Shown one piece after another: positions 3,417 to 60,341 of a stretch of 64,000 bases of DNA; position 1 is the stretch's first letter; each line of letters opens with the position of its first letter. The position numbers and the translations under genes are program-made. Under the pieces are notes generated by a model, which made no database searches, was not told the origin of the DNA, and saw only the letters and a list, made by a program, of their open reading frames with translations. Origin of the DNA: Candidatus Falkowbacteria bacterium (GTDB lineage: Bacteria > Patescibacteriota > Patescibacteriia > CAIXNZ01); assembly GCA_963774955.1 (NCBI GenBank), contig CAVZGV010000003.1:771-64770 (forward strand), given 5' to 3'.

Positions 3417-3572
3417 TTTTAGGGGGCCTTGCTTCGGATTGATTAAATAATTTTACGAACTAAACAAAAAGCCAAGATAAAAGTTTGATTTAATCCCGTA
3501 TGCCAAAAGTTAAGAAAGATCAAAAAAATGAAAAAAGTTAAAGGTGAAATTGTTAAGCAGATGAAAGCTGAA

Positions 3573-11028: not shown

Positions 11029-11052
11029 ATTTTAATAAATTGATTTTAATTT

Positions 11053-23200: not shown

Positions 23201-24487
23201 GTTGATTGGCTTGATGTCGAGGTATACCGCAAAGCACCGATTGACAACATAAAACAGGCAGAACTCCGCAATAATGATTTATTTATCTGCGCCGGGAAAA
23301 ATAATTGTCAGTTAGCCGCTGACTATGATCAAGATGCGGTTAAGGCAGGTAATCAGCATATGTATAAGGCTTTAGCCAAATATAACGGCAGTCAGGAATT
23401 GCAGGCTACTTTCCAATGGTCAAAAACTGATACTTCTGATCCGCAAGAAGCAATTAATATTTCCAATGATTATGGCTCCTGCACAGCAGGTGATACCAAT
23501 ATTGAATTTTGTACTAATGATGCTGATTGCGGTTCCGGCGGAATTTGTGATCTGACGCAGGGTGATCTGCTCACTGAAGATCAGTATAAAGTAAAAAATT
23601 ATTCCGGGGTGACTTTTGCCACGGCTGCGGCCCTTAAAGAAGGCGTGTCAAGGTTAGTTATTGAAGCTCAAGCTTTGGGCAGCACTGTTTCGGCGCAAAA
23701 AGAATTTACAGTTTACATTTTACTGTGCGAAAATCCTTGGCCGGGCATAGATGAAAAGTTCCCGATATCTTCCATTATTAATGCTTATAATTTCCAGACT
23801 TATTATTGCCGCGATGCCACCACTCCGGGCGGACCGCTTTTACCGGCAGCACGCTGGCTGGCGCCCAAAGAAGGAAAATTAAATATTTTACAAAATGTTG
23901 ATTTTGAATTCGGTAATTTGACTTACTGGGCCGATTTGACCGGCAATGCTTTTAATTCCCAGCCGGTTTTCCGTGATTTGCCAAAAGAGAGGGGACTGGC
24001 AGCTGCCGGGATTCAGGGTGCCTGGTGGATAAATACCTATGAAAGATATCGCGGTCAGTCTTGGGAAAATATAAATGTTGTTCAGGGTAATACACCGTTG
24101 GGAATATTACAGTCTGCCGCTTTTGTCATTGAAGGTGCTAAATTGGAATTTAAGATTGGCGGCACAGCTTCTTCTCCTGCTTGGCCTATAAATTTACCTG
24201 TGGTTAATTTTAATGACACGACTGATACTAACCGTGCGGCTATACAAGGCGTAACCGCTGCCGTGTTGTTTGTTCGAGATGATAATAGTTCTTCTTTTTA
24301 CAGTATTGCCTCAGAGTCTGGCAACAATTCCCAGGTGATGACGACGAAAAATTGGGTCATTGATGGCGCACATAGGGGAAAAACTGGTATAATATATATA
24401 TATGACAATAGTACAGGTGGTTATATAAGTTTTGACGACTTAAGACAGTATGATGACAACAACGTAGAAATACCAATTAGGTTTTAG
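20177..24487 (+). CDS. Giant Cys-rich surface protein C (1436 aa ORF). It is almost certainly the C-terminal continuation of protein B across a frameshift near 20255. It contains IPT-like, Myxococcus-type Cys repeats and a fourth LamG domain (~21538-22170).
   Basis: The ORF overlaps the end of B by 110 nt in the +1 frame. An IPT-like domain is split across the two ORFs (RIYGENFGSAPATGDHITFEP... in B; ...TDWGSCPETGWDDKNICFSVPDNAAGFGTG...VSVTKGDQQSGTKQFEV in C). The module pair IPT(C.FGC..G.VYF) + LamG is repeated at ~19010 and ~21400. The annotated N-terminus is not signal-like. Confidence 0.7.
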   Translation: MVLINCRIGKNLIIMPSQILIRAVMIAIGTEGNHSYDIGEPFIDFANPGNYDSNLAGANFISQIIKFVTKTDWGSCPETGWDDKNICFSVPDNAAGFGTGSETALNNVSVTKGDQQSGTKQFEVTFGSCGNQKIERDKGEMCDGTLMPTITPTELINICTQLFSPLYPDDEISQCYAECNIGCSLSFCVGSDCKIIKELCGNDTIDEFYSVNKETFYHEQCDNNTFPSGLTCSQAGYASDKVCVSGDKAGEPCYGDDQCSDNKTCAGGDNQGAACTTNTDCPQSTCQSDIACVQSCTFRCDTCQLLVCDKNGDNCELSLKLTCGNDQLDINEECDGTNLNGKTCTDFNNQEGTLACYPPQDPIGINDCRLNTDDCEGGTLPGPVCTADSDCQACGVGTSSCVKGFCTPYITKFSPTDGQIGTWTTLEGCYFGCEQGEVYFEGDKLTELPAENKNGLVAGYLFNNDGNVNDISGNFPGTLNGGASVQNGYLSLGGADSDYVSLGLLNAGSLYDVNGNSSETFITRINWTQNQDLKIQPIGTALGLMHIIAVIGQSGHIGVYLASQNQDGGWIYSANRINPGEWVEIALVISSGSNLKFYINGILDKEVSISGLKLWGPAWETTLGQRYPGDPDAYRNFSGQIDHLLIYNSALSEDEIANIYKLTHKQGLNPGEACPANWMCHKSCSDKYCVGGTNDNKPCANNAACPGGDCQSNTRACTTNDSCKVCLGGTNAGGLCTTNQDCPASQCGTGTCRPDWIGDLVTMEVPNENTEVTTDDAITGPINLVTRYNLQNDTQHLPYLTAPYTPQTSDFMISSNEYPQICLAADQIKVESTNPADNDGITNDNLICRNAKININFDKIVDQKKITKGNFLISTCESGIVTPKTAFNEGLINRAIAFVFDIVQKLISIKKDVSAQAGCTTIADYNLEVSNSGATKVSIVPKGLLAPEQVYAVTILGGLTGITGIDGAILDYSESPKKINVNGTDLEAYIFEFKTMGTTADPKSGICNVDWLDVEVYRKAPIDNIKQAELRNNDLFICAGKNNCQLAADYDQDAVKAGNQHMYKALAKYNGSQELQATFQWSKTDTSDPQEAINISNDYGSCTAGDTNIEFCTNDADCGSGGICDLTQGDLLTEDQYKVKNYSGVTFATAAALKEGVSRLVIEAQALGSTVSAQKEFTVYILLCENPWPGIDEKFPISSIINAYNFQTYYCRDATTPGGPLLPAARWLAPKEGKLNILQNVDFEFGNLTYWADLTGNAFNSQPVFRDLPKERGLAAAGIQGAWWINTYERYRGQSWENINVVQGNTPLGILQSAAFVIEGAKLEFKIGGTASSPAWPINLPVVNFNDTTDTNRAAIQGVTAAVLFVRDDNSSSFYSIASESGNNSQVMTTKNWVIDGAHRGKTGIIYIYDNSTGGYISFDDLRQYDDNNVEIPIRF

Positions 24488-24497
24488 ATAAAAAAGT

Positions 24498-27400
24498 ATG
24501 AAAAAACTAAAAATAAAATTTTTGCTGGCTGCTTTAGCGTTGCTTTTATTGCCGGTGGCCGGTATTGCTCAGGATGCTAATTTAGCGCCTTCAAGCCAGG
24601 ATACTTTGCTGGAACAATATTTGTTTCCTGTTAGTTCGTATTTGGAAAGCGGTACGTCCATAGGCAAAGCCGCCTCTGAATGCGACAGTTATGCGACATA
24701 TGATGAAACCAATAATGTCTGGGCGGCTAGTACAGCTTGTTCGGCTTTAACAAGTGATTCCGGCATAGTACAAAAAACAGGGGATGGCAAAGGAATCTAC
24801 GGCTCGAGTTTAATGGCGTTAACTTATAAATTTAGCGTTCCTCTGGAAGGCAATTATGATTTTAAAATCAAGGCAGCCAATTCCTTTGATAATTTTGCGA
24901 ACCTAAATAGTCAGCAGTTGGATTATATTTTCCAAAATTCTGATACTACAAATTATGATTCTTATCAGATTGATCCTGCGACAAAAAGTTTAACAGTTTT
25001 AGAATATAGCGATGATAATGTAATAACGGATAACGTTAAATATGAGATGTTTAAAAGTATAATTTTCAGTGTTTATCTGGATATGCCCGCTGTTTTTAGC
25101 GGTGAGGATAAAGAAGAAAATTATCGTCAGGGGTATATCATAATTTCAGCGACTGATTTTTCTCAGTTGCAGGACGGTTCGGTCTTATTGGGCAATTTAA
25201 AGCCCGGAGAACATACCGTCAACCTGCGTTTTTTAAGTGATTATTATTTTAATCCTTCGGCTAATCCATTATCTGGTAATCTGAATACTTTTGATGAAGT
25301 TAATATTGAGGCCGGTCAGTGCGCAGTCGGCCCCAACGAAGCTGCTAAAAACTGTACAAGTAATAAGGATTGCCCTTCAAAGGTTTGTAATAAAATAAAC
25401 AATGTTTTAGATATTAATCCGGTGATTGCCGGTGTTTCCATAAATCAAACTCAGCCGACTACTGATGTAATCGGTGTTAGAATCTATACCAATAAAGATC
25501 ATAAGGATCCGGAAACTTGGTATCGGGAAAATGTGATTCAGCCTATGGCTAGCGTCAAACCAATAAAGGTTGACGGTTATTTGGGTGTTCAGGATGAACG
25601 CACCACTTATGTCAGTGCGGCCAATATTGACCGTAACAATTTTTTCACCAATATTTATGTCATGGCTTATAACCAGGATGCGGCGCCCCCCTCAATTAAT
25701 ATTTTCAAGCAGCTGATCGCCAATTGGGTTTTTAATAAAAATATTTACACAACATATACTTTAAAAACAGAGGCTGAAAAACAAAAAGATAAATTGCGCC
25801 GTGATACCATCAGATTAGCTGATATGTTTAAATTGGGCCGTCTTTTGGGAAATTATAAATCTAATAATGGCGGAAAATGTCCGGTTTTAGATGCGGGAAC
25901 CTATATAAAAAATCATTCCATCTCCACCTGGCCTTCATGGCAGGCGACTTTAGGAAATGAATTGGGTACGGTTTTGCCCATAGATCCATTAAATATAATG
26001 TCAGCCACTAAAGAAAGTCAGTATGACTGTACAAATGCCATTGATAAAGAAAATTGCCAAAATATTTGTACCCGAGATGCTGCCAATAATCCATTGACAG
26101 GCTGTCCTCTGACCCAGCAGTGTATGTCTGATTATTGTAGCAGTTGTTCTGCCAGCTATGATCCGCTGACCTGCTGGGATAAAGCAAATTTGAAATTTTA
26201 CGATGAAACTTTTTTTTCAGGCTGTAAAATGCCTAACAGCGAGGCGTATAGTGTATTTGACGGCGCTTTGCGAGTCGGCGCTTCTGACTGTAAAGAAGGT
26301 TTATTTGCAGAAACCGGCCAAGCCTATGTACTTGACGGAGATTTTGTTTACCAATACGTTTCTCGTGATAACGGACAAAGCTGTTCCTTTATCAATCGTT
26401 TTGAATATACGGAGCCAGATCTATGCCAGCCGGGTTTTTGTTATTACGATAATAATGATACCAACCCCACTAATGACTGTTATCAGCCGGGTGCTTGTTT
26501 AGCCGGTTGCGACAGTCAGGCTGCAAATTGCCTTAATACCCAATACAAAAATTTATATTGTTATTCAGGCAGCTGGCGGCAATCTTGCGGCGACGGATTT
26601 TGGCAGACTCAATGCGGAGAAAGTTGTGACCCGAATTCGCCTTTGACACCAGGAGATTCCTGGTGCGACCGGCTTTTTGGACCTCAGGATTGGTATAACG
26701 AATCAAGTATCAAGGCTTCCTGTACCTCAGCCTGCACTATCAGCGAAGGCAATAATTTGACTATTGCAGATTGCGGCGGTTTTTGCGGGGATAAAGTAGT
26801 TGAAGCAAAAGGCGGAGAACAATGTGATGAAGGTTTGGTTCCGACAGAGATGAAAAAGGGCAGTGCCGGCTTTGATCAGAATTCTCAATATATGTGTTCA
26901 GGCAAGGGCGGCAGTTCTGTTCCGGTGTTAAATGGAGCCGATTGCCTGAATTACAGTAATGATTGGGATTTGCCTACTACAAGAGAGGCTGATCCTTATT
27001 TTGATCTTTTATTTTGCTCTTCTTTATCAACAAGAAGCTATTGGATAAATAAATTAGCGGATAATTCTATAAAGTCTAACGGTGGTTTTAGGGTAAGTTA
27101 TAATTTTTCATTGCCCCAATATGGCGGTTATAATCTGACGATAAAAGCAGCTAATTATCAAGATGATTTGACTAAATTGACGACGACGCAGCTTGATTAT
27201 TTAATCAGCCAGAAACAGCCGGTTGATGATTTATACAATATTACAGGCGTTTGTCGTAATTCTGATGTTATTACCTGTGCTAGTGATGTCGATTGTCAAA
27301 TAAATAATCAGCCGACTGGTTATTGCCAGCAGGGTGCGGTCAATATTCCGGAATACGGCTTGATTGAGCCGACAGATAACAGAAAATATGATTTACTGCG

Positions 27401-29891
27401 AAGTTTAATCTTTAGTGTGTATCTTGATATTGATAGCGACTCCGAGTTAAGTATACCAGGTAATTTGGTTGGCTTTATAATTATGCCCGCCAGCAATGTT
27501 GAACAACCAGGAAGTTTATTTATCAGCGGATTAGCAGCCGGGCCTCATACTGTATATTTACATTTTGTCGGTGATCATTTTTATTATCAGTTACCTAATG
27601 ATCCTCCGGGTAGCGCAGTCGATAACCCCTTGGCAGAAGTAGCTGCCGGTTTACCTGATCCGTTGGCTCTGGATATAAATCCCATAATTTATTCAATTTC
27701 CATGTATTCGCCGCAGGCAGCAGTCGGTGACTGTATGACTTATGGCGGCTGGTGCGGTGATGGCCAGGTGGAGCTACAGTTTGGGGAACAATGTGATGTT
27801 AAAAATTATTTGCCGCCGAGTGCTGAACAAACAGTAAATATTGCCTATAATCCGGGATTTGAAGGCTATTTTACACCTTGGCAAAAATCCGGCGGAACAG
27901 TAAGTCTGAATACTGATCAGTATTTCGAAGGCAGATCCGGCCTGAAAATGGTGGCTGATTCGGCTGATATAGCCATGAATTTGCAACAATTAATTAATTT
28001 TTCTCCGAATAAAAATTATACCATTTCTGTGCGGGTCAAAGGTGCTGTTGATTCAATCAAATTTCAAGTCGGTAATTTGTCCCAACTTGTGGGTTGGCTG
28101 GGCAGCCCGATTGATTTGCCGGAAAAAACCGCAGAGGAAAAAGCTGGTTGGAAGCTTTATCAGCTTGATGAATTTTTGACTCCGGCTCTGAGTACCGGTT
28201 TGAGTGATGAATTTAGATTAATTTTTACGCCGAATTCAGGAGCTACATTAAATATAAACGTTGATGATATAAAAATAGTTGCCGAAGCCAGTGCCAGACC
28301 GCAGTATCAGTGTGGTACGGTTAGCGGGTCATTGTGTCAGTATCGCGGGGGCTATTGCGGTGACGGGCAAATTCAGACTACTTATGGAGAAAATTGCGAT
28401 GATCGAGTAGGTTTGAGTTGTGCTAATGGTGAAGGTTGTGGTAAAAATGGAAACTGCAATTCTACTACTAATATTTGTGAAAGTATTGCCTGCAATAATA
28501 TATGTAAAAGCACTTATTGCGGGGACGGTACTGTTCAGCGGCCAAATTCTGTGAGCACCTATGAAACTTGCGATTATAAATCCGATCCTATGTGCTCATC
28601 AGACTGTACTCATATTAAAATGGGAGGTGTTTGTACGACTGATACTTATGGGCAGACCTGTCAAACTAAAGACAGCGCTGATTGCCGGGTTTGCGCCAAC
28701 AGTTTATCTTGTTCCATCAGGAATTTCGGCGATACTGATAAAAAATGTTTGGGCGCCAGAAACAGTTATGGCTGTAAAAGCGATAGTGATTGCATTTTAG
28801 GCTATTATTGCGATACGGCGCAAAATAAGTGTAAAGAAGAAGTTTCTACTTATTTAAGATATCATCCGGAAGCAGAAACCAGTCTGACTTTACCTGTTCC
28901 TCCGGCGCCGACTGGTATTTCTTATGACATTAATATCAGCAAATGCCCGGATTTGAAGACGGTTACTTTGGGGAATGAAACCTATGTTGTTGATCGTTGC
29001 AGCAATATAAGCTGGCTGTCAGCTGATAATATTACGAGAATTGACGTTAATTGGAACAATAATGATGCCGTGACTATCGGCTGTCCAGCGCCAACGCGCT
29101 TGCCGACCGTGGCTGAACTATACAGCCTGGTCAGGCAGACAAATTCCGGATTACTATATGCGGACAAGAATTTATTGAAATTATGTCCGGCCAGTTGCAG
29201 TTATTCCGAAAATGCGGATAATCTCTGTTCCACCGACTGCCGTATTCCCAATGATGACAATTATATTTATTGGACCAGTACTTGCGTGGACAAAGACGGT
29301 ACCGGGTGTAAAAAGGCCTTGGCTGTAAATTTTAAATACGGCAGTATTGAAAGTTATCCGGCAGCTTCGGCTTTAAAGGTCCATTGCTTAAAAGAAACAA
29401 ACTGCGGTGATGGTCTGCTTGATCCCGGTGAATCATGTGAATTTTTTACCTCAGCATCCGACAGTAATATTAAAATTGAAAAGAATATTGAGCGGGAATA
29501 TAGTAAGAGCTGTAAAAATTTCGGTTATGACGGCGGTTTTTTGCATTGCGATCGGGAAACTTGCGGTATCAGAGTAGATAATTGTTATTTGAATAGCCGG
29601 CCGGCTCAATCCTGCGAACAAGTCTGTCAGGATAAAAAAACCTTAGCCTGTCAGTCAGTTGGCCTGGATATCAGTACGGATGCTTTTGATCAGGCGGGCC
29701 TGGCTTCATGGATTGCCTCGAATAATAGAATGGTTGATGTTGATGCGAATGGCAATTGTTTGCCGAATCAGTCTATTGCTAGCGGTTGTAATTATACCTT
29801 TAATAATAGGGAAAAAAGCTGTATTGATACTTATACCAATAAGCCCGCGCCGTTTAATTCCGAATATTCTTATTGCAATTGTCAGGAGTAA
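24498..29891 (+). CDS. Giant secreted Cys-rich protein D (1797 aa). It has a signal peptide, two copies of a ~200-aa beta domain, a CBM4/9-like domain, CGDG...CD Cys repeats and a C-terminal DUF1566 (Lcl-like) domain.
   Basis: Signal peptide MKKLKIKFLLAALALLLLPVAGIAQDA. Internal duplicate modules near 24800-25300 and 27090-27640 (LDYIFQNSD.../LDYLISQKQ..., SIIFSVYLDM.../SLIFSVYLDI...). CBM-like NPGFEGYFTPWQKSGG...NYTISVRVKG at ~27840-28310. DUF1566-like RLPTVAELYSLV...YWTST at ~28990-29410. Confidence 0.75.
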   Translation: MKKLKIKFLLAALALLLLPVAGIAQDANLAPSSQDTLLEQYLFPVSSYLESGTSIGKAASECDSYATYDETNNVWAASTACSALTSDSGIVQKTGDGKGIYGSSLMALTYKFSVPLEGNYDFKIKAANSFDNFANLNSQQLDYIFQNSDTTNYDSYQIDPATKSLTVLEYSDDNVITDNVKYEMFKSIIFSVYLDMPAVFSGEDKEENYRQGYIIISATDFSQLQDGSVLLGNLKPGEHTVNLRFLSDYYFNPSANPLSGNLNTFDEVNIEAGQCAVGPNEAAKNCTSNKDCPSKVCNKINNVLDINPVIAGVSINQTQPTTDVIGVRIYTNKDHKDPETWYRENVIQPMASVKPIKVDGYLGVQDERTTYVSAANIDRNNFFTNIYVMAYNQDAAPPSINIFKQLIANWVFNKNIYTTYTLKTEAEKQKDKLRRDTIRLADMFKLGRLLGNYKSNNGGKCPVLDAGTYIKNHSISTWPSWQATLGNELGTVLPIDPLNIMSATKESQYDCTNAIDKENCQNICTRDAANNPLTGCPLTQQCMSDYCSSCSASYDPLTCWDKANLKFYDETFFSGCKMPNSEAYSVFDGALRVGASDCKEGLFAETGQAYVLDGDFVYQYVSRDNGQSCSFINRFEYTEPDLCQPGFCYYDNNDTNPTNDCYQPGACLAGCDSQAANCLNTQYKNLYCYSGSWRQSCGDGFWQTQCGESCDPNSPLTPGDSWCDRLFGPQDWYNESSIKASCTSACTISEGNNLTIADCGGFCGDKVVEAKGGEQCDEGLVPTEMKKGSAGFDQNSQYMCSGKGGSSVPVLNGADCLNYSNDWDLPTTREADPYFDLLFCSSLSTRSYWINKLADNSIKSNGGFRVSYNFSLPQYGGYNLTIKAANYQDDLTKLTTTQLDYLISQKQPVDDLYNITGVCRNSDVITCASDVDCQINNQPTGYCQQGAVNIPEYGLIEPTDNRKYDLLRSLIFSVYLDIDSDSELSIPGNLVGFIIMPASNVEQPGSLFISGLAAGPHTVYLHFVGDHFYYQLPNDPPGSAVDNPLAEVAAGLPDPLALDINPIIYSISMYSPQAAVGDCMTYGGWCGDGQVELQFGEQCDVKNYLPPSAEQTVNIAYNPGFEGYFTPWQKSGGTVSLNTDQYFEGRSGLKMVADSADIAMNLQQLINFSPNKNYTISVRVKGAVDSIKFQVGNLSQLVGWLGSPIDLPEKTAEEKAGWKLYQLDEFLTPALSTGLSDEFRLIFTPNSGATLNINVDDIKIVAEASARPQYQCGTVSGSLCQYRGGYCGDGQIQTTYGENCDDRVGLSCANGEGCGKNGNCNSTTNICESIACNNICKSTYCGDGTVQRPNSVSTYETCDYKSDPMCSSDCTHIKMGGVCTTDTYGQTCQTKDSADCRVCANSLSCSIRNFGDTDKKCLGARNSYGCKSDSDCILGYYCDTAQNKCKEEVSTYLRYHPEAETSLTLPVPPAPTGISYDINISKCPDLKTVTLGNETYVVDRCSNISWLSADNITRIDVNWNNNDAVTIGCPAPTRLPTVAELYSLVRQTNSGLLYADKNLLKLCPASCSYSENADNLCSTDCRIPNDDNYIYWTSTCVDKDGTGCKKALAVNFKYGSIESYPAASALKVHCLKETNCGDGLLDPGESCEFFTSASDSNIKIEKNIEREYSKSCKNFGYDGGFLHCDRETCGIRVDNCYLNSRPAQSCEQVCQDKKTLACQSVGLDISTDAFDQAGLASWIASNNRMVDVDANGNCLPNQSIASGCNYTFNNREKSCIDTYTNKPAPFNSEYSYCNCQE

Positions 29892-29929
29892 CTTCAAACT
29901 TAAGTTTATTATGTTTATAATAACAAAAT

Positions 29930-32407
29930 ATGGTTAATGCGAATTGGTTTAAAATTTTTATAATTTGCCTGGTTATAATTTGCCTGGGTTTTTTGAGCTG
30001 GCAGATCGTTGCCATGGTGGAAACAGCAAATTCAGTCAAGGATTATCTGAAAGTTGCGGCGACCTGCCCTAATTTTTCAGCTTTTGCTTCTGATAATGTT
30101 GATCACAATTATCTAACTATGAAAGACAGTTGTACCGGTTTGGTCTGGATGAGCCGTCCTTTGCCGATTTATAAGACAGCTGGAATTGAGGTTCAGCCAG
30201 GGTATGTTTGGCAAAATGCGAAAAATACCTGCGCGGGAATAGCCCAGGTTGATGGTACTTCTTTATTTCGTTTGCCGACAGTTGAGGAATTACTCAGTTT
30301 GGTTAAAGTTAGCTGTGATAATGCCAGTTGTACGGTTAATTCTGATTTTTTTCCAGCGGATATTGATAAGACATTTGCTAACGGCTATTATTGGTCTGCC
30401 AATGATTTCAATGAAGATGCCAGCTGGGCAACAGATAATGCCGGACGTGATTATAAACGTTCAGTTAATTTGCTGACCGGCCAGGTTGATTCCCCGGTTT
30501 TTGGTAAAGATGTCCAGTTGAATGCCTGGTGCGTGGTAGCACGCCAGCCGGAAATTATTGAACGTAAATTTACCAGCGTTACCAATCAAGTTATAAGTAA
30601 CGGCAGTCAGGCTCTTGGTGGCAGTTTGCGCACTGTATATAACAGAAAATGCGCCGTAGCTACTGTAGATGATGATTGCAGTGCTTTGAGTGCCTTAGCA
30701 GGCACAGTTGCGTGTGAGAACAATGTTGCTGGTGACGGGAATTTTTATTGTGTTAAAACAGCAAATATAAATCTTACAGACATAATAGTCGCAAGTTGCG
30801 ACCCAAATTACCATGTAGCAGCTGATGTATGTCAGCTAAATCCGCCATCTGATAATTGCGGAAATAGTTATATAGATCTTACGCCCTTACCGGCAGAGCT
30901 TTGCGATGACGGTGCTACTTTAAATGGTAAACCCGGACAATGCAATGGTACCTGTAGTGGCTGCGGATTGGGTTATCGGATTGATTCGGCCAAATGCGTA
31001 TCTAATTGTGGTAATGGGACTGTTGATCTTAAACCGGATAATTCCTTAGAAATCTGTGATAATGGTGCTTTAAATGGACAAACAGGTAAATGTAATTCTA
31101 CCTGTACTGGTTGCGATGCTGGTTATTATAATGTTAATAATGTGTGTACACCAAATTGCGGTAATGGCGATATCGATCTTACGCCCTTACCGGCAGAGCT
31201 TTGTGATGACGGCCCTGATAATGGTCAGCCTGATAAATGCAATAGTACTTGTAATGGTTGTGGAACAGGTTTTTATTTAAATTCTACAACTAATGAATGT
31301 AATTATAATTGTGGTAATGGTACATTTGAAGACCCAGAACTTTGTGATGACGGCGTTGATAACGGTCAACCCGGTAAATGTAATACAGCCTGTACCGGCT
31401 GCGCAACAGGTTATCACCTGGAAGGTAAGTATTGTATCGCTGATGTCATTGTTTATCAGTGTGTTGGCACTTTAGCCAATGCCACAATTTGTCCGGAGCC
31501 AAATGCTACAGGGTTGATAGCAGATACAAACATTGAGTTAGTAACTGCTTGCGCTGACGCTGTTGAAAAATGTGAATATACCTGTAATCCCGACTATATT
31601 GCGTTTAATAATACTTGTATTGAGCTTAAGTGCGGTGATGGCGTGGTTACACCAGGATCACCGGAAATTTGTGATGACGGTGATCCATTAACCGGTGGTA
31701 AAAACGGAGTTTTTGGTTATTGTAATAGCACTTGTACTGGTATTCAGGGCTTTGGTAGCCCATTCTTTTATGATAATTTTGAACTGCCTTTAACTGGTTG
31801 GATGCAAGGTTATTGTCCAACCGGTAGTGTTAATTGTTCCTGGTCCAGAGTAATTCATCCTCTTGGTTCCACAAATTATTCATTAGAGTCAATTGGAGGT
31901 AGTGATAGCTCTCTTTATCCTAGAGATTATTGGGTTGATCGGGCAGGTTTAAATGAAAAAGTTGATGTTGATGTATTAGTTATGATTGATTTTCCGCCAG
32001 CAGTTGGCTTAAAGGATGCAATGTTAATTGCACGACGATCAGGGTCCGGTACAACTGAAAATTATTATGGTTTATTGACTAATAATGGTTCTGCATCAGA
32101 CGATCCCAATATTCTGGTACGTTATAAAAATGGGAGTCAATCAATTTTGGTAACAGGACCAGATGTAAATATTACCGGCAGAAATTGGCTGCGTTTACAG
32201 GTATATAATGATTCTGCAACAGGCAATGTTGTCATCAGATCAAAATGGTGGCCAGAAGGGCAGTTAATGCCTACTGCTTGGGAAATGACATACACAGATA
32301 CTGATACTACTAATAATATTACTACTGGTGGCAATGTTGGTTTGGCCGGCTGGAAAACAAATACCCTTTACTTCGACAATTTTCAGGCTTATGATTATGT
32401 GCCTTAA
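29930..32407 (+). CDS. Membrane-anchored Cys-rich protein E (825 aa). It has an N-terminal TM anchor, a DUF1566 (Lcl-like) domain, four tandem Myxococcus-type cysteine-rich repeats and a C-terminal ConA-like jelly-roll domain.
   Basis: TM at WFKIFIICLVIICLGFLSWQIVAMV. DUF1566 pattern TGLVWMSRP...WQNAKNTCAGIAQVDGTSLFRLPTVEELLSLV (~30100-30545). Four ~47-aa repeats NCGNG..D....E.CDDG..NGQPGKCN.TC.GC..GY at 30840-31440. C-terminus FYDNFE...FDNFQAYDY. Confidence 0.7.
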   Translation: MVNANWFKIFIICLVIICLGFLSWQIVAMVETANSVKDYLKVAATCPNFSAFASDNVDHNYLTMKDSCTGLVWMSRPLPIYKTAGIEVQPGYVWQNAKNTCAGIAQVDGTSLFRLPTVEELLSLVKVSCDNASCTVNSDFFPADIDKTFANGYYWSANDFNEDASWATDNAGRDYKRSVNLLTGQVDSPVFGKDVQLNAWCVVARQPEIIERKFTSVTNQVISNGSQALGGSLRTVYNRKCAVATVDDDCSALSALAGTVACENNVAGDGNFYCVKTANINLTDIIVASCDPNYHVAADVCQLNPPSDNCGNSYIDLTPLPAELCDDGATLNGKPGQCNGTCSGCGLGYRIDSAKCVSNCGNGTVDLKPDNSLEICDNGALNGQTGKCNSTCTGCDAGYYNVNNVCTPNCGNGDIDLTPLPAELCDDGPDNGQPDKCNSTCNGCGTGFYLNSTTNECNYNCGNGTFEDPELCDDGVDNGQPGKCNTACTGCATGYHLEGKYCIADVIVYQCVGTLANATICPEPNATGLIADTNIELVTACADAVEKCEYTCNPDYIAFNNTCIELKCGDGVVTPGSPEICDDGDPLTGGKNGVFGYCNSTCTGIQGFGSPFFYDNFELPLTGWMQGYCPTGSVNCSWSRVIHPLGSTNYSLESIGGSDSSLYPRDYWVDRAGLNEKVDVDVLVMIDFPPAVGLKDAMLIARRSGSGTTENYYGLLTNNGSASDDPNILVRYKNGSQSILVTGPDVNITGRNWLRLQVYNDSATGNVVIRSKWWPEGQLMPTAWEMTYTDTDTTNNITTGGNVGLAGWKTNTLYFDNFQAYDYVP
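30840..31440 (+). repeat. Four tandem ~141-nt coding repeats (Myxococcus-type cysteine-rich repeat units) inside E, with near-identical 38-mers.
   Basis: gatcttacgcccttaccggcagagctttgcgatgacgg (30881) against gatcttacgcccttaccggcagagctttgtgatgacgg (31176); the protein repeat is CGNG..DLTPLPAELCDDG. Confidence 0.75.
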
Positions 32408-32447: not shown

Positions 32448-33248
32448 ATGTTTGATACACCAAACCCACAATCAGGCGGTATGCCGCCACGGCAAGCTAT
32501 GCCGCAACCAGGCGCTCCTAGGCCGGCTCAGCCAGGGCAGCCGGCACCACGACCAATGCAGGCTGGTCCGGCTCCCAGACCAATGAAAGAGCCAGAAGAC
32601 ATTTTTGCCGGCATCGGCGGAGGTTCGAGAACACCACAACCGCCATTAACGCCTGAAGTCAGGCCAGGGAAGGGCAAGAAAGTGTTATTAATTATTTTAC
32701 TTGCGGTTATCATTATATTGCTTGGAGTTGGCGGTGTTTTGGCTTACCTTAGTTTTGTGGCTCAGCCGACACAGCCAGTCGATAACGATAATATGAATCT
32801 GCCCCCAGTTGATATTACTTTGCCCAATATCAATGATAATGAAAATATGAACTTTAATTTCAATGATAATTTGAACGCAGGTTTGAATCTAAATGACAAT
32901 CTCAATATTAATGATAATTTGAATGCTAATTTAAATGACAATCTTAATATCAATGATAATTTGAATGTCAATTTAAACACTAATTTAAATGACAATCTTA
33001 ATATCAATGCTGCTCTTGATTCTGATAATGATGGACTGACTGATGAACAGGAAATAAACCTTGGCACTAATCCGCAAAGCCCGGATACAGATAATGACGG
33101 TTTATTTGATAAGGAAGAGATTGAAAATTATATGACAGATCCTTTGAACTCAGATACTGACGGTGATGGCTACTTAGATGGCGATGAGATAAAAAACGGC
33201 TATAATCCCAATGGCCCCGGCAAATTACCGGAGCCTCTGGTGCCTTAA
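32448..33248 (+). CDS. Small bitopic membrane protein F. It has a Pro-rich cytoplasmic N-terminus, one TM, extracellular Asn/Leu-rich hexapeptide repeats and three bacterial TSP3-type Ca-binding repeats.
   Basis: TM VLLIILLAVIIILLGVGGVLAYL. Repeats NDNLNINDNLNANLNDNLNINDNLNVNLNTNLNDNLNI. Ca-binding repeats DSDNDGLTDEQE..GTNP, DTDNDGLFDKEE, DTDGDGYLDGDE..GYNP. Confidence 0.65.
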   Translation: MFDTPNPQSGGMPPRQAMPQPGAPRPAQPGQPAPRPMQAGPAPRPMKEPEDIFAGIGGGSRTPQPPLTPEVRPGKGKKVLLIILLAVIIILLGVGGVLAYLSFVAQPTQPVDNDNMNLPPVDITLPNINDNENMNFNFNDNLNAGLNLNDNLNINDNLNANLNDNLNINDNLNVNLNTNLNDNLNINAALDSDNDGLTDEQEINLGTNPQSPDTDNDGLFDKEEIENYMTDPLNSDTDGDGYLDGDEIKNGYNPNGPGKLPEPLVP

Positions 33249-33353
33249 TCCCAGGTTTAAATTTATTTTAGGCCTTGATTATTGCCAGTTAATAATTTTT
33301 TCACCTAAAAACAGACTCCAATTTATTGAATTTGTTTATTTAGTTTTTTATTT

Positions 33354-34445
33354 ATGTTTAATCAACCAAAAAAAGGCGTAGCAACTCAACCTCAAGAAAA
33401 AGCAAAAACAGATCCTTATGAAATGCATGTTATGCCGGCAAAATTTCATCAGTATTTATCTCCCAGGAAAAAAAGCAAATTCGGGAAATTTCTGCTTGTT
33501 TTCGTGGTAATTTTTCTGGTTTTAGCCGGGATGGCTTTTGGCGCTTATTATTTATACACGTCCTTACAACAAGCTGCGCCGTCGGTCATTAATCAAAACA
33601 GCCAGCCAGCGATTCCGAATATTAATCTTAATCAAAATCAGCCTGAAGAAAACCTGAATCAGGTCAATGAAAATTTAAACACTGATATTAATCCCGACAT
33701 CAATGATGATAATGTTAATGAAAATCTCAATAGTAATGAGAATTTGAACATTAATATTAATCTTAATGAAAATTTAAACATTAATGAAAATCAAAATACT
33801 AATGAGGCTTTAAATCTCAATATTGATGTGCCTATTCTTATAAATTATAGTAGCAGTGCTGATGCTGATTTGGATAGGCTGACAGATATGGAGGAAGACC
33901 TTTACACTACGGAAAAACGAAAGCCTGATACTGACGGAGACGGTTATTTGGACGGCGATGAAATAATCGGTGGCTATAACCCCAAAGAAGGCGGCGGTGC
34001 GTTATTGGCTAATTCCGGCCTGGTCAACAAATATTCCAATCCGCTTTTTAGCTATGAAGTTTTATACCTTAAGGATTTTCTGGCCAAGCCCACCGATTCC
34101 AGTCTGAGTGAAGTAATTTTTCAGTCCAGTACCGAAGAATATTTTATTCTTAGCGTTGAGAGTAATCCAGAGGCAGTAGATTTGGTCAATTGGTATCTGA
34201 CCCAATCGCCCGGAGTCAACTTGAATGATTTAGAAAAAATTACCACTAAAAAGGGATATACTGCGTTAATAAGTCCGGATAGGCTGACGTATTATCTTCA
34301 GGTTGCCGATAAGCCCGATCAGGTTTTTATGATTAGCTATAATATTGGGACGCTCAAAGCGGTAAATTTTTTGACTACTTTAGAGATGATGGTGAATAGC
34401 TTTAGTTTCGTTGTTAATTCAAATGCGGACGCCAACATGCAGTAA
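33354..34445 (+). CDS. Paralog G of F. Same layout, plus a ~180-aa C-terminal domain of unknown function.
   Basis: TM FLLVFVVIFLVLAGMAFGAYYLY. Repeats NLNQVNENLN...NENLNININLNENLNINENQN. Ca-binding repeats DTDGDGYLDGDEIIGGYNP. Confidence 0.65.
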   Translation: MFNQPKKGVATQPQEKAKTDPYEMHVMPAKFHQYLSPRKKSKFGKFLLVFVVIFLVLAGMAFGAYYLYTSLQQAAPSVINQNSQPAIPNINLNQNQPEENLNQVNENLNTDINPDINDDNVNENLNSNENLNININLNENLNINENQNTNEALNLNIDVPILINYSSSADADLDRLTDMEEDLYTTEKRKPDTDGDGYLDGDEIIGGYNPKEGGGALLANSGLVNKYSNPLFSYEVLYLKDFLAKPTDSSLSEVIFQSSTEEYFILSVESNPEAVDLVNWYLTQSPGVNLNDLEKITTKKGYTALISPDRLTYYLQVADKPDQVFMISYNIGTLKAVNFLTTLEMMVNSFSFVVNSNADANMQ

Positions 34446-34454
34446 ACGCAAAAT

Positions 34455-34901
34455 ATGAAGCATAATATTTATTGGGAGATCAAGAGTAAACCGCCGAAAG
34501 ATTTTAAGCTTTTGGGGAAAATACTGGACCAGGCGGCCAAGGTTTTAAAAATTGGGGCTAAAACGGAAATTAGTCTTATTATAGTTGATACAGCCAAAAT
34601 ACGAAGTTTAAATAAGCAATATAGGCGTAAAGATAAAGTTACTGATGTTTTGTCATTTAGTCAGCAAGAAGGCTTAGCTTTAAATAATCCCAAAGGGCTA
34701 GTTTACTTGGGAGATATTGTTATTTGTTATACGCAAGTGAAAAAGCAGGCCAAAGTTTTCGGCTTGGCCCGGGAAAAAGAATTAGCTTTTTTGGCTATTC
34801 ACGGTTTATTGCATTTATTGGGTTATCAGGACAAAACTCAAAAACAATATTTAAAAATGGAAAAATTACAAAATAAAATTTTATCATACTTTTATGATTA
34901 A
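34455..34901 (+). CDS. ybeY: rRNA maturation endoribonuclease YbeY.
   Basis: HGLLHLLGYQD matches the Zn-binding H-x3-H-x5-H motif; size 148 aa. Confidence 0.75.
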   Translation: MKHNIYWEIKSKPPKDFKLLGKILDQAAKVLKIGAKTEISLIIVDTAKIRSLNKQYRRKDKVTDVLSFSQQEGLALNNPKGLVYLGDIVICYTQVKKQAKVFGLAREKELAFLAIHGLLHLLGYQDKTQKQYLKMEKLQNKILSYFYD

Positions 34902-35262
34902 TTTTCGACGTTTGGCTAAAAGTTTTAAATACGCATTTGCTGGCTGGCAGAAAGTTTTCTGGTCTGAACAGAATTTTCGGATTCATAATTTAGTGGCTTT
35001 GGTCATTCTGGTTTTAGCCCTTATTTTCCGGGTTAATATTTTCGAATTTATAATTATTATTTTTATTATCGGCTTTATTCTTATTTTGGAGATAGTAAAT
35101 ACTATTTTTGAAAGATTACTTGATCTGATTAAACCCAGACTTCACAGCTACGTCCAGGATATAAAAGATATGACCGCAGCGATCGTCCTTATTGGTTCGC
35201 TGGTGGCAGCGGTTATCGGTTTTTTGATTTTTTACCCTTATTTTTTAGCGTTAATAATTTAG
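34894..35262 (+). CDS. dgkA: Diacylglycerol / undecaprenol kinase (DgkA family).
   Basis: 122 aa, three TM helices, ...NFRIHNLVALVILVLALIF...LEIVNTIFERLLDLIKPRLHSYVQDIKDMTAAIVL.... Confidence 0.65.
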   Translation: MINFRRLAKSFKYAFAGWQKVFWSEQNFRIHNLVALVILVLALIFRVNIFEFIIIIFIIGFILILEIVNTIFERLLDLIKPRLHSYVQDIKDMTAAIVLIGSLVAAVIGFLIFYPYFLALII

Positions 35263-35308
35263 TAGTTTATTTTCTGGAATCAAGGAATTTAATTATCCAA
35301 TCAAATTT

Positions 35309-36573
35309 ATGTCTCAAGAAGAAATTATTGTCGGCTTAGATGTGGGTTCTACTTCGATTAAGGTCGTGGTGGCAACGCGAATGTCCAAAGAAGCCAATCA
35401 AAAAATACATATTATTGGAGCGGTTGCTCAGGAGTCAGAGGGTATTAATCGCGGGGTTATTACCAGTATTGAAGACGCTGCTTCGAGTATTAGCAAGGCT
35501 TTGGATAAAGCTGAAAAATTAACGGGTATTGCCTATTGAACAAGCTTGGGTTAGTATTTCCGGCGGTACATATTATTTCGCAAATCAGCCAGGGTGTCGT
35601 GGCGGTTTCAAAAACGGACGGTGAAATCAGGGAAGAAGATTATGAAAGAGCTTTAGAAGCGGCTAAGGCAGTAACCACGCCGCCTAATTATGAGATTCTG
35701 CATGTAATACCTCGCAGTTTTACTGTTGACGGTCAAAGCAGTATTAAAGATCCGATTGGCATGACCGGAGTTCGTTTGGAAGTAGAAACCTATATTATTA
35801 GGGTTTAAGTTCGCAGATAAAAAATTTAACCAAATGCGTTTATCAGACAGGCTTGGATATTGAAGATTTGATTTTAGGGTATATTGGCGACTAGCGAAGC
35901 GGTTTTGACCAGTCGACAGAAAGAATTGGGTGTGGCCGTAGTTAATATTGGCGGTGCCACTACCAGTTTGGCTGTTTTTGAACAGGGTGATTTGCTGACA
36001 ACTGCGATTTTACCCATTGGGTTCAGAACATATTACTTCTGATATTGCCATTGGTTTAAGGACATCTATTGAAGCGGCTGAAGCGATTAAATTAAAATAT
36101 GGAGCGGCAACTTCCAAAGGAATTGATAAAAAAGAGCGAATTTGATTTGAGTGAATTTGATGAAAATGAAGAAGGTTTAATCAGCAGAAAATATTTGGCT
36201 GAAATTATTGAAGCCCGAGTTGAAGAAATTTTGGACAAAGTTGATATTGAACTGAAAAAAATTGACCGTAGCGGTTCTTTGCCCGCTGGTATTATTCTGA
36301 CCGGTGGAGGGGCCAAATTACCGAAAATTATTGAGGTTTGCAAAAGGAACCTTACGTTTACCGGCAGCCTTGGGTTATCCTTATGACATTATTAGTGTTA
36401 TTGATAAGGTTAATGATTTATCTTTTACCACTGCTGTCGGTTTAGTAAAATGGGCTGGCCATATGATGAAGCAGCGTAAAGGGATTTCACGTTTTAAAAG
36501 TGTGACCGGGGTAACCGATAAAATGAAAAAATGGTTTAAATCTTTGTGCCTTAAAATGGTGCTGAACAAATAA
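35309..36573 (+). pseudogene. ftsA: Cell-division protein FtsA, split into at least 5 frame segments.
   Basis: IIVGLDVGSTSIKVVVA...; ISGGTYYFANQPG / VVAVSKTDGEIREEDYERALEAAKAV...EILHVIPRSFTVDGQSSIKDPIGMTGVRLEVE; ILTGGGAKLPKIIEV...; LRLPAALGYPYDIISVIDKVNDLSFTTAVGLVKWAG. All FtsA-typical, but in different frames. Confidence 0.7.
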
Positions 36574-36657
36574 TGTGTCCAATATTGTGCAAAAAGTAGT
36601 TTACTAATAGCTTGAAAGTTGATATTATAATAGTAATTAATATAAGCGTTAAAATAT

Positions 36658-37763
36658 ATGGAAATTAAGCCAGAAATCGAAACTTTTGCTAAAATTAAAA
36701 TTGTTGGTGTCGGCGGTAGTGGAGGCTCAGCTGTTAATCGTATGATTGATTCGAAAATTAGAGGTGTGGAATTTGTTAGTGTAAATACTGATATTCAGGC
36801 TTTGCATTATTCTCGGCTCATAAAAAACTACATATCGGCAAAATCGATTACCCGTGGCTTGGTGCCGGTATGGATCCGGAAATCGGCTATAAAGCCGCTG
36901 AAGAGTCACAAAATGAAATCAGTGAGTTCTCAAAGGAGCAGATATGGTTTTTATAACTTGTGGCTTGGGCGGCGGTACTGGTAGCGGTGCTTCGCCGGTA
37001 ATAGCAGAAATTGCCAAAGAGCTGGGGGCTTTGACTGTGGCGGTCATTACCAAGCCTTTTTCTTTTGAAGGCGCCCAACGCAAAGGTATTGCTGATGGAG
37101 CCTGGGACAGATTGAGCGAAAAAGTGGATACTATTATAACTATTCAAAATGATCGTCTTTTACAAATAATTGATAAGAAGACTTCGTTGCTGGAAGCTTT
37201 TGGCATTGTTGATGATGTTTTAAGACAGGCGGTTCAGGGAATTTCTGAATTGGTTACTATTCCCGGTTTGATTAATGTTGACTTTGCAGATGTTAAATCA
37301 ATTATGAAAGATCAGGGTACGGCTTTGATGGGCATTGGTCAGGCCAGGCGGTGAAAATCGTGCAATTGACGCAGCTAAGGCAGCTATTTCCAGTCCGCTT
37401 CTGGAATTATCAATGGATGGGGCCAAAGGCGTCTTATTTATTGTTTCTGGCGGTCCGGAATTAAGCATGCATGAAGTTAATGAAGCAGCTAAGATAATTA
37501 CTGCTTCAGCTGATAATAATGCCAAAATTATTTTTGGTACGGTTATTGATAAAGATTTGGGTGATCAAATCAAAATTACCGTTATTGCTACTGGTTTTGA
37601 ACCAAAGTCAATAAAAAATAAAGAAGTTGAAACTAAAATATATACTCCGGAAAAAAATTTATATAAACCAAGTCAATTTTTAAATAAAGAAAGCCAGGAA
37701 GATAAGATTGATGACAAACCAAAGAAAAAAGACGCGGATGATTATAAGATTAATGTTAGATAA
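36658..37763 (+). pseudogene. ftsZ: Cell-division GTPase FtsZ, split into 3 frame segments by homopolymer-type indels.
   Basis: IKIVGVGGSGGSAVNRMI...GVEFVSVNTDIQAL; then [43 protein letters not shown]...NDRLL (tubulin signature GGGTGSG); then AIDAAKAAISSPLLE...ATGFE. The breaks fall at a GGG run and an AAAA run. Confidence 0.75.
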
Positions 37764-37869
37764 AAATGAAAGTGAGGAGGAAGATTTGGATATCCCGGCC
37801 TTTATCAGGAAAAAGATGATGTAAGCCTGAATCACGGATTTTTCTCACGGATAATACAGATTTTGGTTA

Positions 37870-44697: not shown

Positions 44698-44730
44698 ATA
44701 AAATCAATGTTTGAAAGGAGGAATATCAGG

Positions 44731-48783: not shown

Positions 48784-49653
48784 ATGACAATTGATGAAAT
48801 AAAAAAATTAATAAACGATTCTGGTATTAAGCCCAGCAAAGGCAAGGGCCAGAATTTTTTAATTGACGATAATGTTTTGACAAAGATCGTAGCCACGGCC
48901 AATTTGAACGCTGAAGATTGTGTTTTGGAAATCGGGCCTGGCTTTGGCGTTTTGACTCAGGAGTTAATTAGGTCCAGTAAAAAAGTTTTAAGCGTGGAAT
49001 TAGACACTAAATTAATTTTTTATATCAAACGTAAATTTAAGGGCGTTAAAAATTGGGAACTGCTGGAAGGGGATATTTTGAAAATTAAAAATGAACTGTT
49101 GGCGCAAAAGTTAGATTCTACAAAGTATAAGCTGGTGGCCAATTTGCCCTATGCCATCACCAAACCGATCATCCAGAAGTTTTTAAATTATGAGCCCAAA
49201 CCCCAGGAACTGGTTATTTTAGTCCAAAAAGAAGTAGCCGAAAAAATTGTAGCTAAACCGGGGGAAATGAGTATTTTAAGCTTGTCAGTCCAGTATTATG
49301 GCCAGCCGCAAATTGCCGGGTTGGTTTCCCGTGACAGTTTTTTCCCCATACCTGCCGTAGATAGCGCTATTTTAAAAATCGTGTTGCGTCAGACAGTTAT
49401 TCCTTCTGAAATTAGCCAAATTTTAACACCAGACCAGGCCGCCAGTTTTCAGGAAAAAAGGTTCTGGCAACTGATAAAAATCGGTTTTTCTTCGCCGAGA
49501 AAACAGTTGCAAAATAATCTGGCCAATGGGTTTAAAGTTGCCAATACTGAGGTGAAAAATAGGCTGATCAAAGCCGGCTTAAAAGAGCTCTGCCGGCCCC
49601 AAGATTTAAGCCTGTCAGATTGGGCAAAGATTTATCAACAGTTTATGGCTTAA
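48784..49653 (+). CDS. rsmA: 16S rRNA (adenine1518/1519-N6)-dimethyltransferase.
   Basis: GQNFLIDDNVLTKIV...EIGPGFGVLTQ SAM-binding motifs; 289 aa. Confidence 0.8.
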   Translation: MTIDEIKKLINDSGIKPSKGKGQNFLIDDNVLTKIVATANLNAEDCVLEIGPGFGVLTQELIRSSKKVLSVELDTKLIFYIKRKFKGVKNWELLEGDILKIKNELLAQKLDSTKYKLVANLPYAITKPIIQKFLNYEPKPQELVILVQKEVAEKIVAKPGEMSILSLSVQYYGQPQIAGLVSRDSFFPIPAVDSAILKIVLRQTVIPSEISQILTPDQAASFQEKRFWQLIKIGFSSPRKQLQNNLANGFKVANTEVKNRLIKAGLKELCRPQDLSLSDWAKIYQQFMA

Positions 49654-60226: not shown

Positions 60227-60341
60227 ACCAAGCCCAACTTTATAACCTTATTCTAAAATTAACATATGGGACTCAAATTCCGGAATAAAATTAAAAAAAC
60301 ATCTGCGAATCTCGGCTTTTGTCTTTGTATTTTTCGGTAGC

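Follow-up and report, generated by a model that had tools for sequence, protein, structure and literature searches.

Three small genes of Candidatus Falkowbacteria bacterium, called F, G and H, encode single-pass membrane proteins that carry thrombospondin type 3 (TSP3) repeats of the calcium-binding kind and that lie, in many genomes of Patescibacteria, beside genes for giant surface proteins. They were studied in a stretch of 64,000 nucleotides (nt) of contig CAVZGV010000003.1 (assembly GCA_963774955.1, positions 771 to 64,770), which is called the window below. Our tentative reading, to which a probability of roughly 0.45 is given, is that F, G and H serve the giant surface proteins as accessory or tether subunits, anchored in the membrane and stiffened by calcium. 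It builds on what was observed: the architecture and topology signals of the three proteins, the conservation of their families, the folds assigned to them and a synteny that reaches across distant lineages. A life attached to host cells is assumed for Patescibacteria (candidate phyla radiation, CPR), whose giant surface proteins are the foremost candidates for recognizing the host. To our knowledge, nothing is known about how these giants are anchored and organised.

All three genes are open reading frames (ORFs) on the + strand, F and G following the giant gene E and H directly preceding the giant gene I, as the original prediction for this DNA had placed them. Only 40 nt separate the stop of E from the start of F, and 29 nt the stop of H from the start of I. 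Each protein has a sole hydrophobic segment. The 15 residues before it contain 4, 5 and 3 Lys or Arg residues in F, G and H, respectively, vs 0, 0 and 1 in the 15 residues after it, and AlphaFold2 predicted transmembrane (TM) helices at residues 43–72 of G and 27–74 of H. Because the basic residues are found on the N-terminal side of this segment, the predicted topology is N-in/C-out, and the conserved extracellular Cys pair of H (C139, C145) agrees with it. Judged from sequence, F, G and H are therefore single-pass membrane proteins with a cytoplasmic N-tail, which was Pro-rich in F; both features had been foreseen.

The ectodomains contain the pattern D-x-D-x-D-G-x-x-D-x-x-E three times in F (starting at residues 191, 213 and 236) and twice each in G (170 and 192) and H (96 and 119), in line with the two or three calcium-type motifs per protein that had been claimed. 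In the first repeat of G an Arg replaces the Gly of the pattern (DADLDR). Comparison with TSP3 profile hidden Markov models (HMMs) had been named beforehand as a test on which the claim could fail. The motifs scored against Pfam TSP3_bac (PF18884): F obtained 60.7 bits (E 1.2e-16, three stretches), above the gathering cutoff of 25 bits, H with 24.7 bits (E 2.2e-5) was just under it, and G obtained 16.6 bits (E 7e-3), also under the cutoff. At E ≤ 1e-3 the model matched 24 of 47 G-family and 25 of 34 H-family members. In the 47 G orthologs D170, D172, D174, T177, E180, E181, D192, D194, D196, D200, E203 and P210 were invariant and D178 was conserved in ≥90%. The only sequence match of F in the PDB was Bap of Staphylococcus aureus (7c7r, E 3.7e-4). 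On the same structure the H pair superposed in a fold search with a root mean square deviation of 1.3 Å over 48 columns, and weak local matches to the NCBIfam models of CglD/MtsD were also seen. The EF-hand models PF13405 and PF00036 (cutoffs 25 and 25.4 bits) were not reached by F (22.5 bits for EF-hand_6, 14.8 for EF-hand_1) or G (12.1 bits), and dockerin (PF00404) gave zero matches at E ≤ 1 for F, G and H. No other ORF of the window contains a TSP3 motif, including about 13,000 residues of the giants. The TSP3 segments of F, G and H are putative Ca2+-binding sites. A 13-residue segment, DTDGDGYLDGDEI, is identical in F (33153–33191) and G (33927–33965). As its coding DNA differs at 9 synonymous sites, selection on the motif is indicated, and recent gene conversion between F and G was rejected.

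The three proteins had been described as paralogs of one design. This holds for F and G, which align in BLASTP with E 4e-13 over the TM segment, the spacer and the TSP3 repeats, which are similar over the full extent of F and which have an MF(D/N) start in common. It does not hold for H, which aligns to F and G only across a TSP3 stretch of about 55–70 residues. F, G and H represent three separate conserved families of Patescibacteria and not one design. The F family (69 positional orthologs) is characterized by MFDD...(E/D)PEDIF(A/S), a Pro-rich tail, the TM segment, a stalk, three TSP3 repeats and the end GYNPxGxGKL. The G family comprises about 75 full-length orthologs; its conserved features are the cytoplasmic (Y/F)(E/D)IHVMPxKF motif, the TM segment and stalk, the residues predicted to ligate Ca and the C-terminal domain. 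The best conserved parts of the H family (about 70 orthologs) are KIEKTPMEKFF with the TM region and a C-terminal helical domain; 6 of 34 H orthologs lack both the TSP3 pair and the Cys pair. Nearly all F and G proteins and their orthologs start with MF(D/E/N/G), and an M-P/P-M..K-F motif stands directly before the TM segment in both G (HVMPAKF, 33417–33449) and H (KTPMEKFF, 49785–49808). The exact sequence of F is absent from a collection of 15 billion proteins, in which those of G and H are present from one NCBI/ENA contig of 565,549 bp; the source gene call may differ for F, or F may have been missed. In public records proteins of the F, G and H type are named 'hypothetical' or 'thrombospondin type 3 repeat-containing'. 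In some proteins of Patescibacteria (e.g. P0198 and P0097) TSP3 repeats are fused to sortase (PF04203) or OmpA (PF00691), and fusions to Binary_toxB-type domains were also seen. The sortase and OmpA fusions hint that the TSP3 module may be a general wall-proximal element in these bacteria.

Two parts of the proteins had not been noted before, a globular C-terminal domain of about 140 amino acids (aa) in G and a helical one in H. AlphaFold2 modelled residues 160–350 of G with a predicted local distance difference test score (pLDDT) > 95. A Foldseek search of the PDB with the C-domain of G retrieved, at probability 1.0, CyanoP (2lnj, E 1.1e-5), 2xb3, Mog1p (1eq6), PsbP (2vu4, TM-score to target 0.56), BT_1490 and Tsi3. 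The modelled domain has the PsbP/Mog1 fold, the members of which are typically non-enzymatic protein-binding modules and often extracytoplasmic. For the C-domain of the window protein no Pfam match was obtained at E ≤ 1, including PsbP (PF01789) and PsbP_2 (PF18933); weak PsbP_2 or PsbP sequence matches were found in 3 of 47 G orthologs (E 1e-4 to 1e-3). Searched alone against 1.84 billion proteins, the domain matched 795 cluster representatives at E ≤ 1e-3. An FtsQ/DivIB-like role of G, prompted by its place upstream of ftsA, was rejected at the domain level by the PsbP-like fold. The helical domain of H gave zero fold matches in the PDB.

Between the membrane and the TSP3 repeats an Asn-rich run of LN.N[DE]N hexads with an 18-nt DNA period had been ascribed to all three proteins. 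The run is present in F and G, and H contains no (N-x)≥4N stretch. The hexad is weak: Tandem Repeats Finder gave the 18-nt period only 63–68% matches overall (63% in F). The clean periods of the F and G stalks are a two-residue N-x dyad, in which 72–91% of the Asn are followed by another Asn two positions on and none by Asn at the next position, and, in F (32886–32977), a unit of 42 nt (14 aa) with 90% identity. Among all ORFs of the window and of six other loci the (N-x)n type is restricted to F and G. It is found in only about 10 of 72 G and 8 of 71 F orthologs, and the stalks of the remainder, similar in length, are rich in Pro, Thr, Ser, Ala or Glu. The median length is 84 aa in G and 64 aa in F (range 32–289). 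Residues 91–158 of G were modelled with pLDDT < 50. Given this score and the non-Asn spacers of most orthologs, the suggestion that the run forms a beta-helix or solenoid was abandoned; the conserved element of the stalk, as far as the models indicate, is a flexible spacer and not a repeat fold. F and G tend to have the matching type of stalk within one genome, even at 53–58% GC. Low GC content explains the Asn richness only in part (Spearman rho: G -0.36, F -0.52), as (N-x)n stalks also occur in the genomes of 53–58% GC and are confined to F and G per locus.

The gene neighbourhood was followed in a scan of one genome per species comprising 80 loci, in which ORFs were called anew and labelled by phmmer; related loci were scanned for with 17 closer sequences as the query. 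The record titles of the loci include Falkow-, Kerfeld-, Komeili-, Buchanan-, Jackson-, Kuenen-, Uhr- and Magasanik-bacteria. The title 'uncultured Gammaproteobacteria bacterium' on many contigs of species-representative metagenome-assembled genomes (L010, L013, L020, L022, L026 and about 20 others; for L011 the title is 'Bdellovibrionales') is likely a taxonomic mislabel. An F-like gene with TM segment and TSP3 repeats lies directly 5' of G on the same strand in 65 of 68 loci (median gap 15 nt), the other three being ORF-calling artefacts. Upstream of F-G an ORF of ≥1000 aa was present in 55 of 57 loci (≥1700 aa in 52) vs 5 of 57 downstream (Fisher p 1e-23), so that the conserved synteny with giants, which had been anticipated, is borne out. 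Downstream of G, YbeY was found in 53, FtsA in 56 and FtsZ in 55 of 62 loci, and in some genomes the stop of G overlaps the start of ybeY. The genomes have diverged deeply: compared with the reference copy (L001 or the window), the median identity amounts to 54% in FtsA, 70% in the core of FtsZ and 39% in YbeY. Six loci have no ftsA within six genes 3' of G; there F-G is intact, and the giant is present in all three that have enough upstream sequence. Three F homologs chosen on contig size alone were all located in the same module. At locus L104 an insertion of 5.5 kb (10711–16300), with a reverse-transcriptase ORF (RVT_1) and an apiosidase-like gene, splits dgkA from ftsA and leaves giant-F-G-ybeY-dgkA intact.

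The upstream giant is homologous to giant C of the window (aa 600–1400) in 40 loci. It carries a VirB2-like pilin domain wherever its N-terminus is in view, and such giants are located directly 5' of F. E-like giants were found in only two loci, D1-like giants in four and D2-like giants in 19, and D1, D2 and E are lineage-specific insertions between C and F. A giant thus adjoins F-G as had been proposed, but the partner that is consistent across lineages is of the pilin-anchored C type and not E. For H, the order ksgA-H-I(-J) was preserved in all 18 H loci with downstream sequence, down to 28–31% identity of H, and it persisted in two H loci in which the genes 5' of ksgA differ. It was also maintained at locus L008, where an H ortholog that lacks the TSP3 repeats (P0187) still stands between ksgA and a giant.

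In the window itself (Table 1) six large surface-protein genes are found 5' of F, i.e. A, B and C, in which a VirB2-like T4SS_pilin domain at the N-terminus precedes Big_5, LamG or TIG, and the Cys-rich D1, D2 and E, in which LamG, CBM_4_9, Lcl_C and DUF4215 were detected. From the 3' side of G onwards the order is ybeY, dgkA, ftsA, ftsZ, nrdR, nrdD, nrdG, htrA, release factor, epimerase, GT2, DUF2304, ksgA, H, I and J. None of A, B, C, D1, D2, E, I and J ends in an LPXTG motif with hydrophobic segment and basic tail, and the window ORFs that were run against Pfam include no genes of a type IV secretion system. C and D1 overlap by 110 nt (20177–20286) in different frames and may be one gene of about 4,500 aa. 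In A (5004–7514) and B (8440–11028) 108 of the first 110 residues are identical, after which the two diverge and B gains LamG; this looks like a recent duplication and fits the 'VirB2 arrays' reported for Patescibacteria (PMC12102498). Two small ORFs lie between A and B, one that looks like ribosomal protein S21 (7739–7969) and one at 7975–8421. A 110-aa ORF between htrA and the release-factor gene (44707–45039) has a prepilin N-terminal methylation motif (PF07963, E 8e-9) and would be type IV pilin-like.

Table 1. Positions of F, G and H, of their parts and of neighbouring genes, numbered from the first nucleotide of the window
Feature	Position	Strand	Description
F	32448..33248	+	266-aa bitopic protein: Pro-rich cytoplasmic tail, TM, (N-x)n spacer, three TSP3 Ca-type repeats; end GYNPNGPGKL...
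F motif EPEDIFA, aa 48-54, cytoplasmic	32589..32609	+	kept in positional orthologs (consensus epeDiFa)
F TM core, aa 79-98, GKGKK just before	32682..32741	+	hydrophobic segment
F alternating-Asn spacer, (N-x)n runs aa 127-143 and 147-187, 42-nt repeat unit inside	32826..33008	+	
F TSP3 repeats 1-3 (DSDNDGLTDEQE, DTDNDGLFDKEE, DTDGDGYLDGDE) up to GYNP	33018..33218	+	TSP3_bac profile, motif pattern, Bap 7c7r match
G	33354..34445	+	363-aa bitopic protein: cytoplasmic motif, TM, (N-x)n spacer, two TSP3 repeats, predicted PsbP/Mog1-fold C-domain
G cytoplasmic motif YEMHVMPAKFH, aa 22-32	33417..33449	+	P28 invariant; M27, F31 ≥90% conserved (47 orthologs)
G TM helix, aa 43-72	33480..33569	+	AlphaFold2 helix, pLDDT up to 95
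G low-complexity Asn-rich spacer, aa ~80-158	33591..33827	+	predicted disordered; 18-nt period at 65-83%
G TSP3 pair (DADLDRLTDMEE, DTDGDGYLDGDE) up to NP210	33861..33983	+	ligand positions invariant in family; pLDDT ~97
G C-terminal alpha/beta domain, aa ~215-352, PsbP/Mog1-like	33996..34409	+	Foldseek
H	49713..50495	+	260-aa bitopic protein: conserved N-region and TM, TSP3 pair, Cys pair, disordered stretch, C-terminal helical domain
H TM core, aa 28-47, after conserved KIEKTPMEKFF	49794..49853	+	K22, I23, T26, P27, K30, F31, F32, F34, F35 ≥90% conserved
H TSP3 pair (DSDLDGLDDYSE, DTDNDGVWDKQE) and NPNC..C pair (C139, C145)	49998..50147	+	optional insert; absent in 6/34 orthologs
H C-terminal helical domain, aa 189-259	50277..50492	+	R224, G231, D242 invariant
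Giant C, 3077 aa	11053..20286	+	VirB2-like T4SS_pilin N-terminus, TIG, three LamG-like domains
Giants D1 (20177-24487), D2 (24498-29891), E (29930-32407)	20177..32407	+	Cys-rich surface proteins between C and F
ybeY (34455-34901), dgkA (34894-35262), ftsA (35309-~36555), ftsZ (36658-~37824)	34455..37824	+	directly 3' of G
ksgA (RrnaAD)	48784..49653	+	directly 5' of H
Giants I (50525-60226, 3233 aa, signal-anchor, CBM_4_9), J (60342-63872)	50525..63872	+	directly 3' of H

In the window ftsA and ftsZ (35309–37824) are each broken by about four to five frameshifts (tblastn frames 2>3>1>2>3>1 and 1>3>2>3>1). A 17-kb Logan contig (ERR12035938) with an identical G encodes an intact FtsA of 413 aa and FtsZ of 388 aa, relative to which the window has a net gain of 5 nt within ftsA. 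The frameshifts are probably a local assembly or polishing error rather than the mark of real pseudogenes. A second frameshift-dense patch (2825–4878) contains genes that by eye resemble signal peptidase I (2825–3416) and HisRS (3619–4878), split across frames; the C-terminal piece of the latter (210 aa, 4246–4878), the only piece of the patch that was scanned, matched Pfam tRNA-synt_His and HGTP_anticodon.

Each protein exposes a small, putatively Ca-binding knob of two or three TSP3 loops outside the membrane on a flexible low-complexity stalk of 30–290 residues, F consisting of stalk and knob alone and G adding the PsbP/Mog1-fold domain. F and G are invariably the last two genes of an operon-like block headed by a giant that is anchored via a VirB2-like pilin hairpin, and H is the first gene of the H-I-J giant-protein block. 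According to the mechanism that we propose, with the stalk spanning the wall and Ca2+ stiffening the TSP3 knob, the three proteins could hold, space or stabilise the giants in the cell envelope. Specific contact might be made via the PsbP-like head of G, the helical head of H or the conserved TM or cytoplasmic motifs; if such contact exists, these parts are better candidates for it than the TSP3 repeats, and calcium-dependent docking as the specific role is a guess. Since HMM matches coincide with deep synteny of F-G and H with giants, it is reasonable to assume a functional link. The accessory or tether reading is favoured because the architecture is tether-like and because surface genes usually keep their place less strictly than these do; from this we infer a tethering role and a physical contact with the giants.

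Several observations weigh against this reading. No partner domain complementary to F, G or H was identified in the giants, in which Pfam also gave zero matches to cohesin. None of the 18 H loci separates H from ksgA. As H keeps its position between ksgA and the giant in the ortholog devoid of TSP3 repeats, these repeats are not what ties H to I, and the earlier idea of docking through TSP3 is not supported for H. F-G is almost as tightly linked to ybeY-dgkA-ftsA-ftsZ (53–56 of 62 loci) as to the giants and, together with the overlap of G and ybeY, this linkage means that co-transcription alone could explain the adjacency. Moreover, the window is almost wholly co-directional, which makes adjacency weaker evidence than in typical genomes. 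Finally, the abundance of small TM-TSP3 proteins in Patescibacteria (more than 2,213 matches at E ≤ 1e-3 among the 8,000 candidates scored) and the sortase and OmpA fusions suggest a general envelope module and not a dedicated partner.

These points could be accommodated if F, G and H were generic Ca-binding proteins of the envelope or wall, involved in cation binding, wall spacing or stabilisation and merely co-transcribed with the giants. Such a role, which would require no specific partnership, fits the many TSP3 small proteins with their sortase, OmpA and Binary_toxB-type fusions, the co-directional window, the equal linkage of F-G to ybeY-dgkA-ftsA-ftsZ and a stalk that is unconstrained in sequence save for its length and low complexity. 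However, the giant-F-G order is kept in 55 of 57 genomes at 39–54% identity of housekeeping proteins, a stability uncommon among surface genes. Each of F, G and H forms a one-to-one orthologous family at one fixed position, and the giant-F-G link persists where ftsA and ftsZ are not found within six genes downstream. We therefore regard a generic role as somewhat unlikely, though it deserves to be taken seriously. The fixed place of F-G upstream of ybeY-dgkA-ftsA-ftsZ would be explained if F and G coupled the divisome or envelope growth to the surface in a way analogous to FtsQ/DivIB, FtsN and MapZ, the EPEDIF and HVMPxKF motifs contacting FtsA, FtsZ or another cytoplasmic machine and the ectodomains the wall. 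FtsQ, FtsN and MapZ are likewise bitopic N-in division proteins, conservation of the cytoplasmic motifs equals that of the Ca ligands, and FtsA and FtsZ are encoded downstream in 56 and 55 of the 62 loci. A coupling function is nevertheless improbable. The predicted ectodomain fold of G is that of PsbP and not POTRA/FtsQ, with zero Pfam matches to FtsQ or POTRA; G is always separated from ftsA by ybeY and dgkA; in the six loci with no ftsA found within six genes downstream, F-G remains beside the giants, and the insertion at L104 leaves F-G-ybeY-dgkA together. H has no link to division genes. A mimicry of the FtsZ C-terminal peptide of this lineage (EIPAFIRKKMM) by EPEDIFA was considered and set aside, the likeness being too loose.

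In lineages with (N-x)n stalks, Asn/hydrophobic amphipathic beta-strands might zipper into an amyloid-like or polar-zipper matrix with Bap-like Ca sites as the switch. Staphylococcal Bap is a Ca-regulated aggregating biofilm protein, and among solved structures only the Ca sites in its region B are related to the TSP3 repeats. Asn recurs with a strict period of 2 in F and G alone, and their stalk types co-vary within a genome. Yet AlphaFold2 assigns the Asn segment no structure, and as the Asn stalk is present in only about 10 of 72 G and 8 of 71 F orthologs, zipper assembly cannot be the core function of these families. Calcium-switched self-assembly is thus very unlikely. It is also conceivable, though we consider it improbable, that F, G and H are small subunits of an undescribed surface-display system of Patescibacteria, in which dedicated bitopic partners, each composed of a cytoplasmic motif, a TM segment, a stalk, a Ca knob and a PsbP-like or helical head, would dock or space pilin-hairpin- or signal-anchored giants and would be wired via their cytoplasmic motifs to ybeY-dgkA-ftsA-ftsZ. 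Such a system would be analogous in function to dockerin/cohesin or adhesin-anchor systems and be built from different parts.

The three proteins are small, conserved and easily expressed, and as neighbours of giants across many candidate phyla they offer concrete experimental handles on CPR surface biology, for which the mechanism given above is a proposal only. The giant-F-G-ybeY-dgkA-ftsA-ftsZ block is a strikingly stable landmark in poorly understood genomes. Even if the proteins are generic envelope spacers, annotation as TM-stalk-TSP3, and of the G family as 'TSP3 + PsbP-like', is useful. In the searchable literature no link was found between TSP3 repeats and small proteins of Patescibacteria or CPR, the matches for thrombospondin with CPR being concerned with giant genes of Omnitrophota and with Planctomycetes-Verrucomicrobia-Chlamydiae (PVC) genomes. 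Likewise, no description was found there of the three families, of the TM-stalk-TSP3-PsbP architecture or of the modules pilin-giant-F-G-ybeY-dgkA-ftsA-ftsZ and ksgA-H-I-J.

The bacterial TSP3 proteins (Myxococcus CglD/MtsD, OmpA-TSP3) and region B of Bap (7c7r, 7c7u) share with F, G and H the D-x-D-x-D-G-x-x-D-x-x-E loop and the short helix behind it. The three proteins differ from them in having only two to three repeats on a tiny bitopic protein, in their fixed place by the giants and in the lack of a VWA, OmpA or Bap-type beta-rich domain. Type I dockerin and cohesin of the cellulosome are alike in concept, with a tandem pair of Ca loop-helix units of about 22 residues each on a linker, encoded beside very large multi-domain surface proteins, and they would be an obvious template for Ca-dependent docking. 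In contrast to that system, the loop consensus of F, G and H is different, no PF00404 match and no cohesin-like partner were found, and the synteny of H is kept without the repeats. With FtsQ/DivIB, FtsN and MapZ, F and G share the N-in/C-out bitopic topology, a short conserved cytoplasmic motif and the place upstream of ftsA-ftsZ, but they lack a POTRA, SPOR or MapZ domain, ybeY-dgkA intervene and their tie to the giants is no weaker.

For Patescibacteria, VirB2-like pilin genes and their arrays have been catalogued (PMC12102498). The PF18895/PF04956 domain of the pilins described there also forms the N-terminus of the giants 5' of F-G, and tandem variable copies (A, B, C) occur in the window as well; here, by comparison, the pilin domain is the N-terminal anchor of proteins of 800–3300 aa. 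In keyword look-ups of PMC12102498 the terms thrombospondin, TSP3, calcium and ftsZ did not come up, nor did fusions of pilins to giants. The C-domain of G has, in the model, the same fold as the PsbP/Mog1/DUF1795-type domains (CyanoP, PsbP, Mog1p, BT_1490, Tsi3 and the Eag chaperones), with TM-scores to the target of 0.45–0.56. It is distinguished from these by an identity of only 8–13%, by its fusion to a TM anchor, a stalk and a TSP3 pair, and by forming a large family of its own. Both the TSP3 repeat and the PsbP fold were known before; new are the families of F, G and H that are built from such parts.

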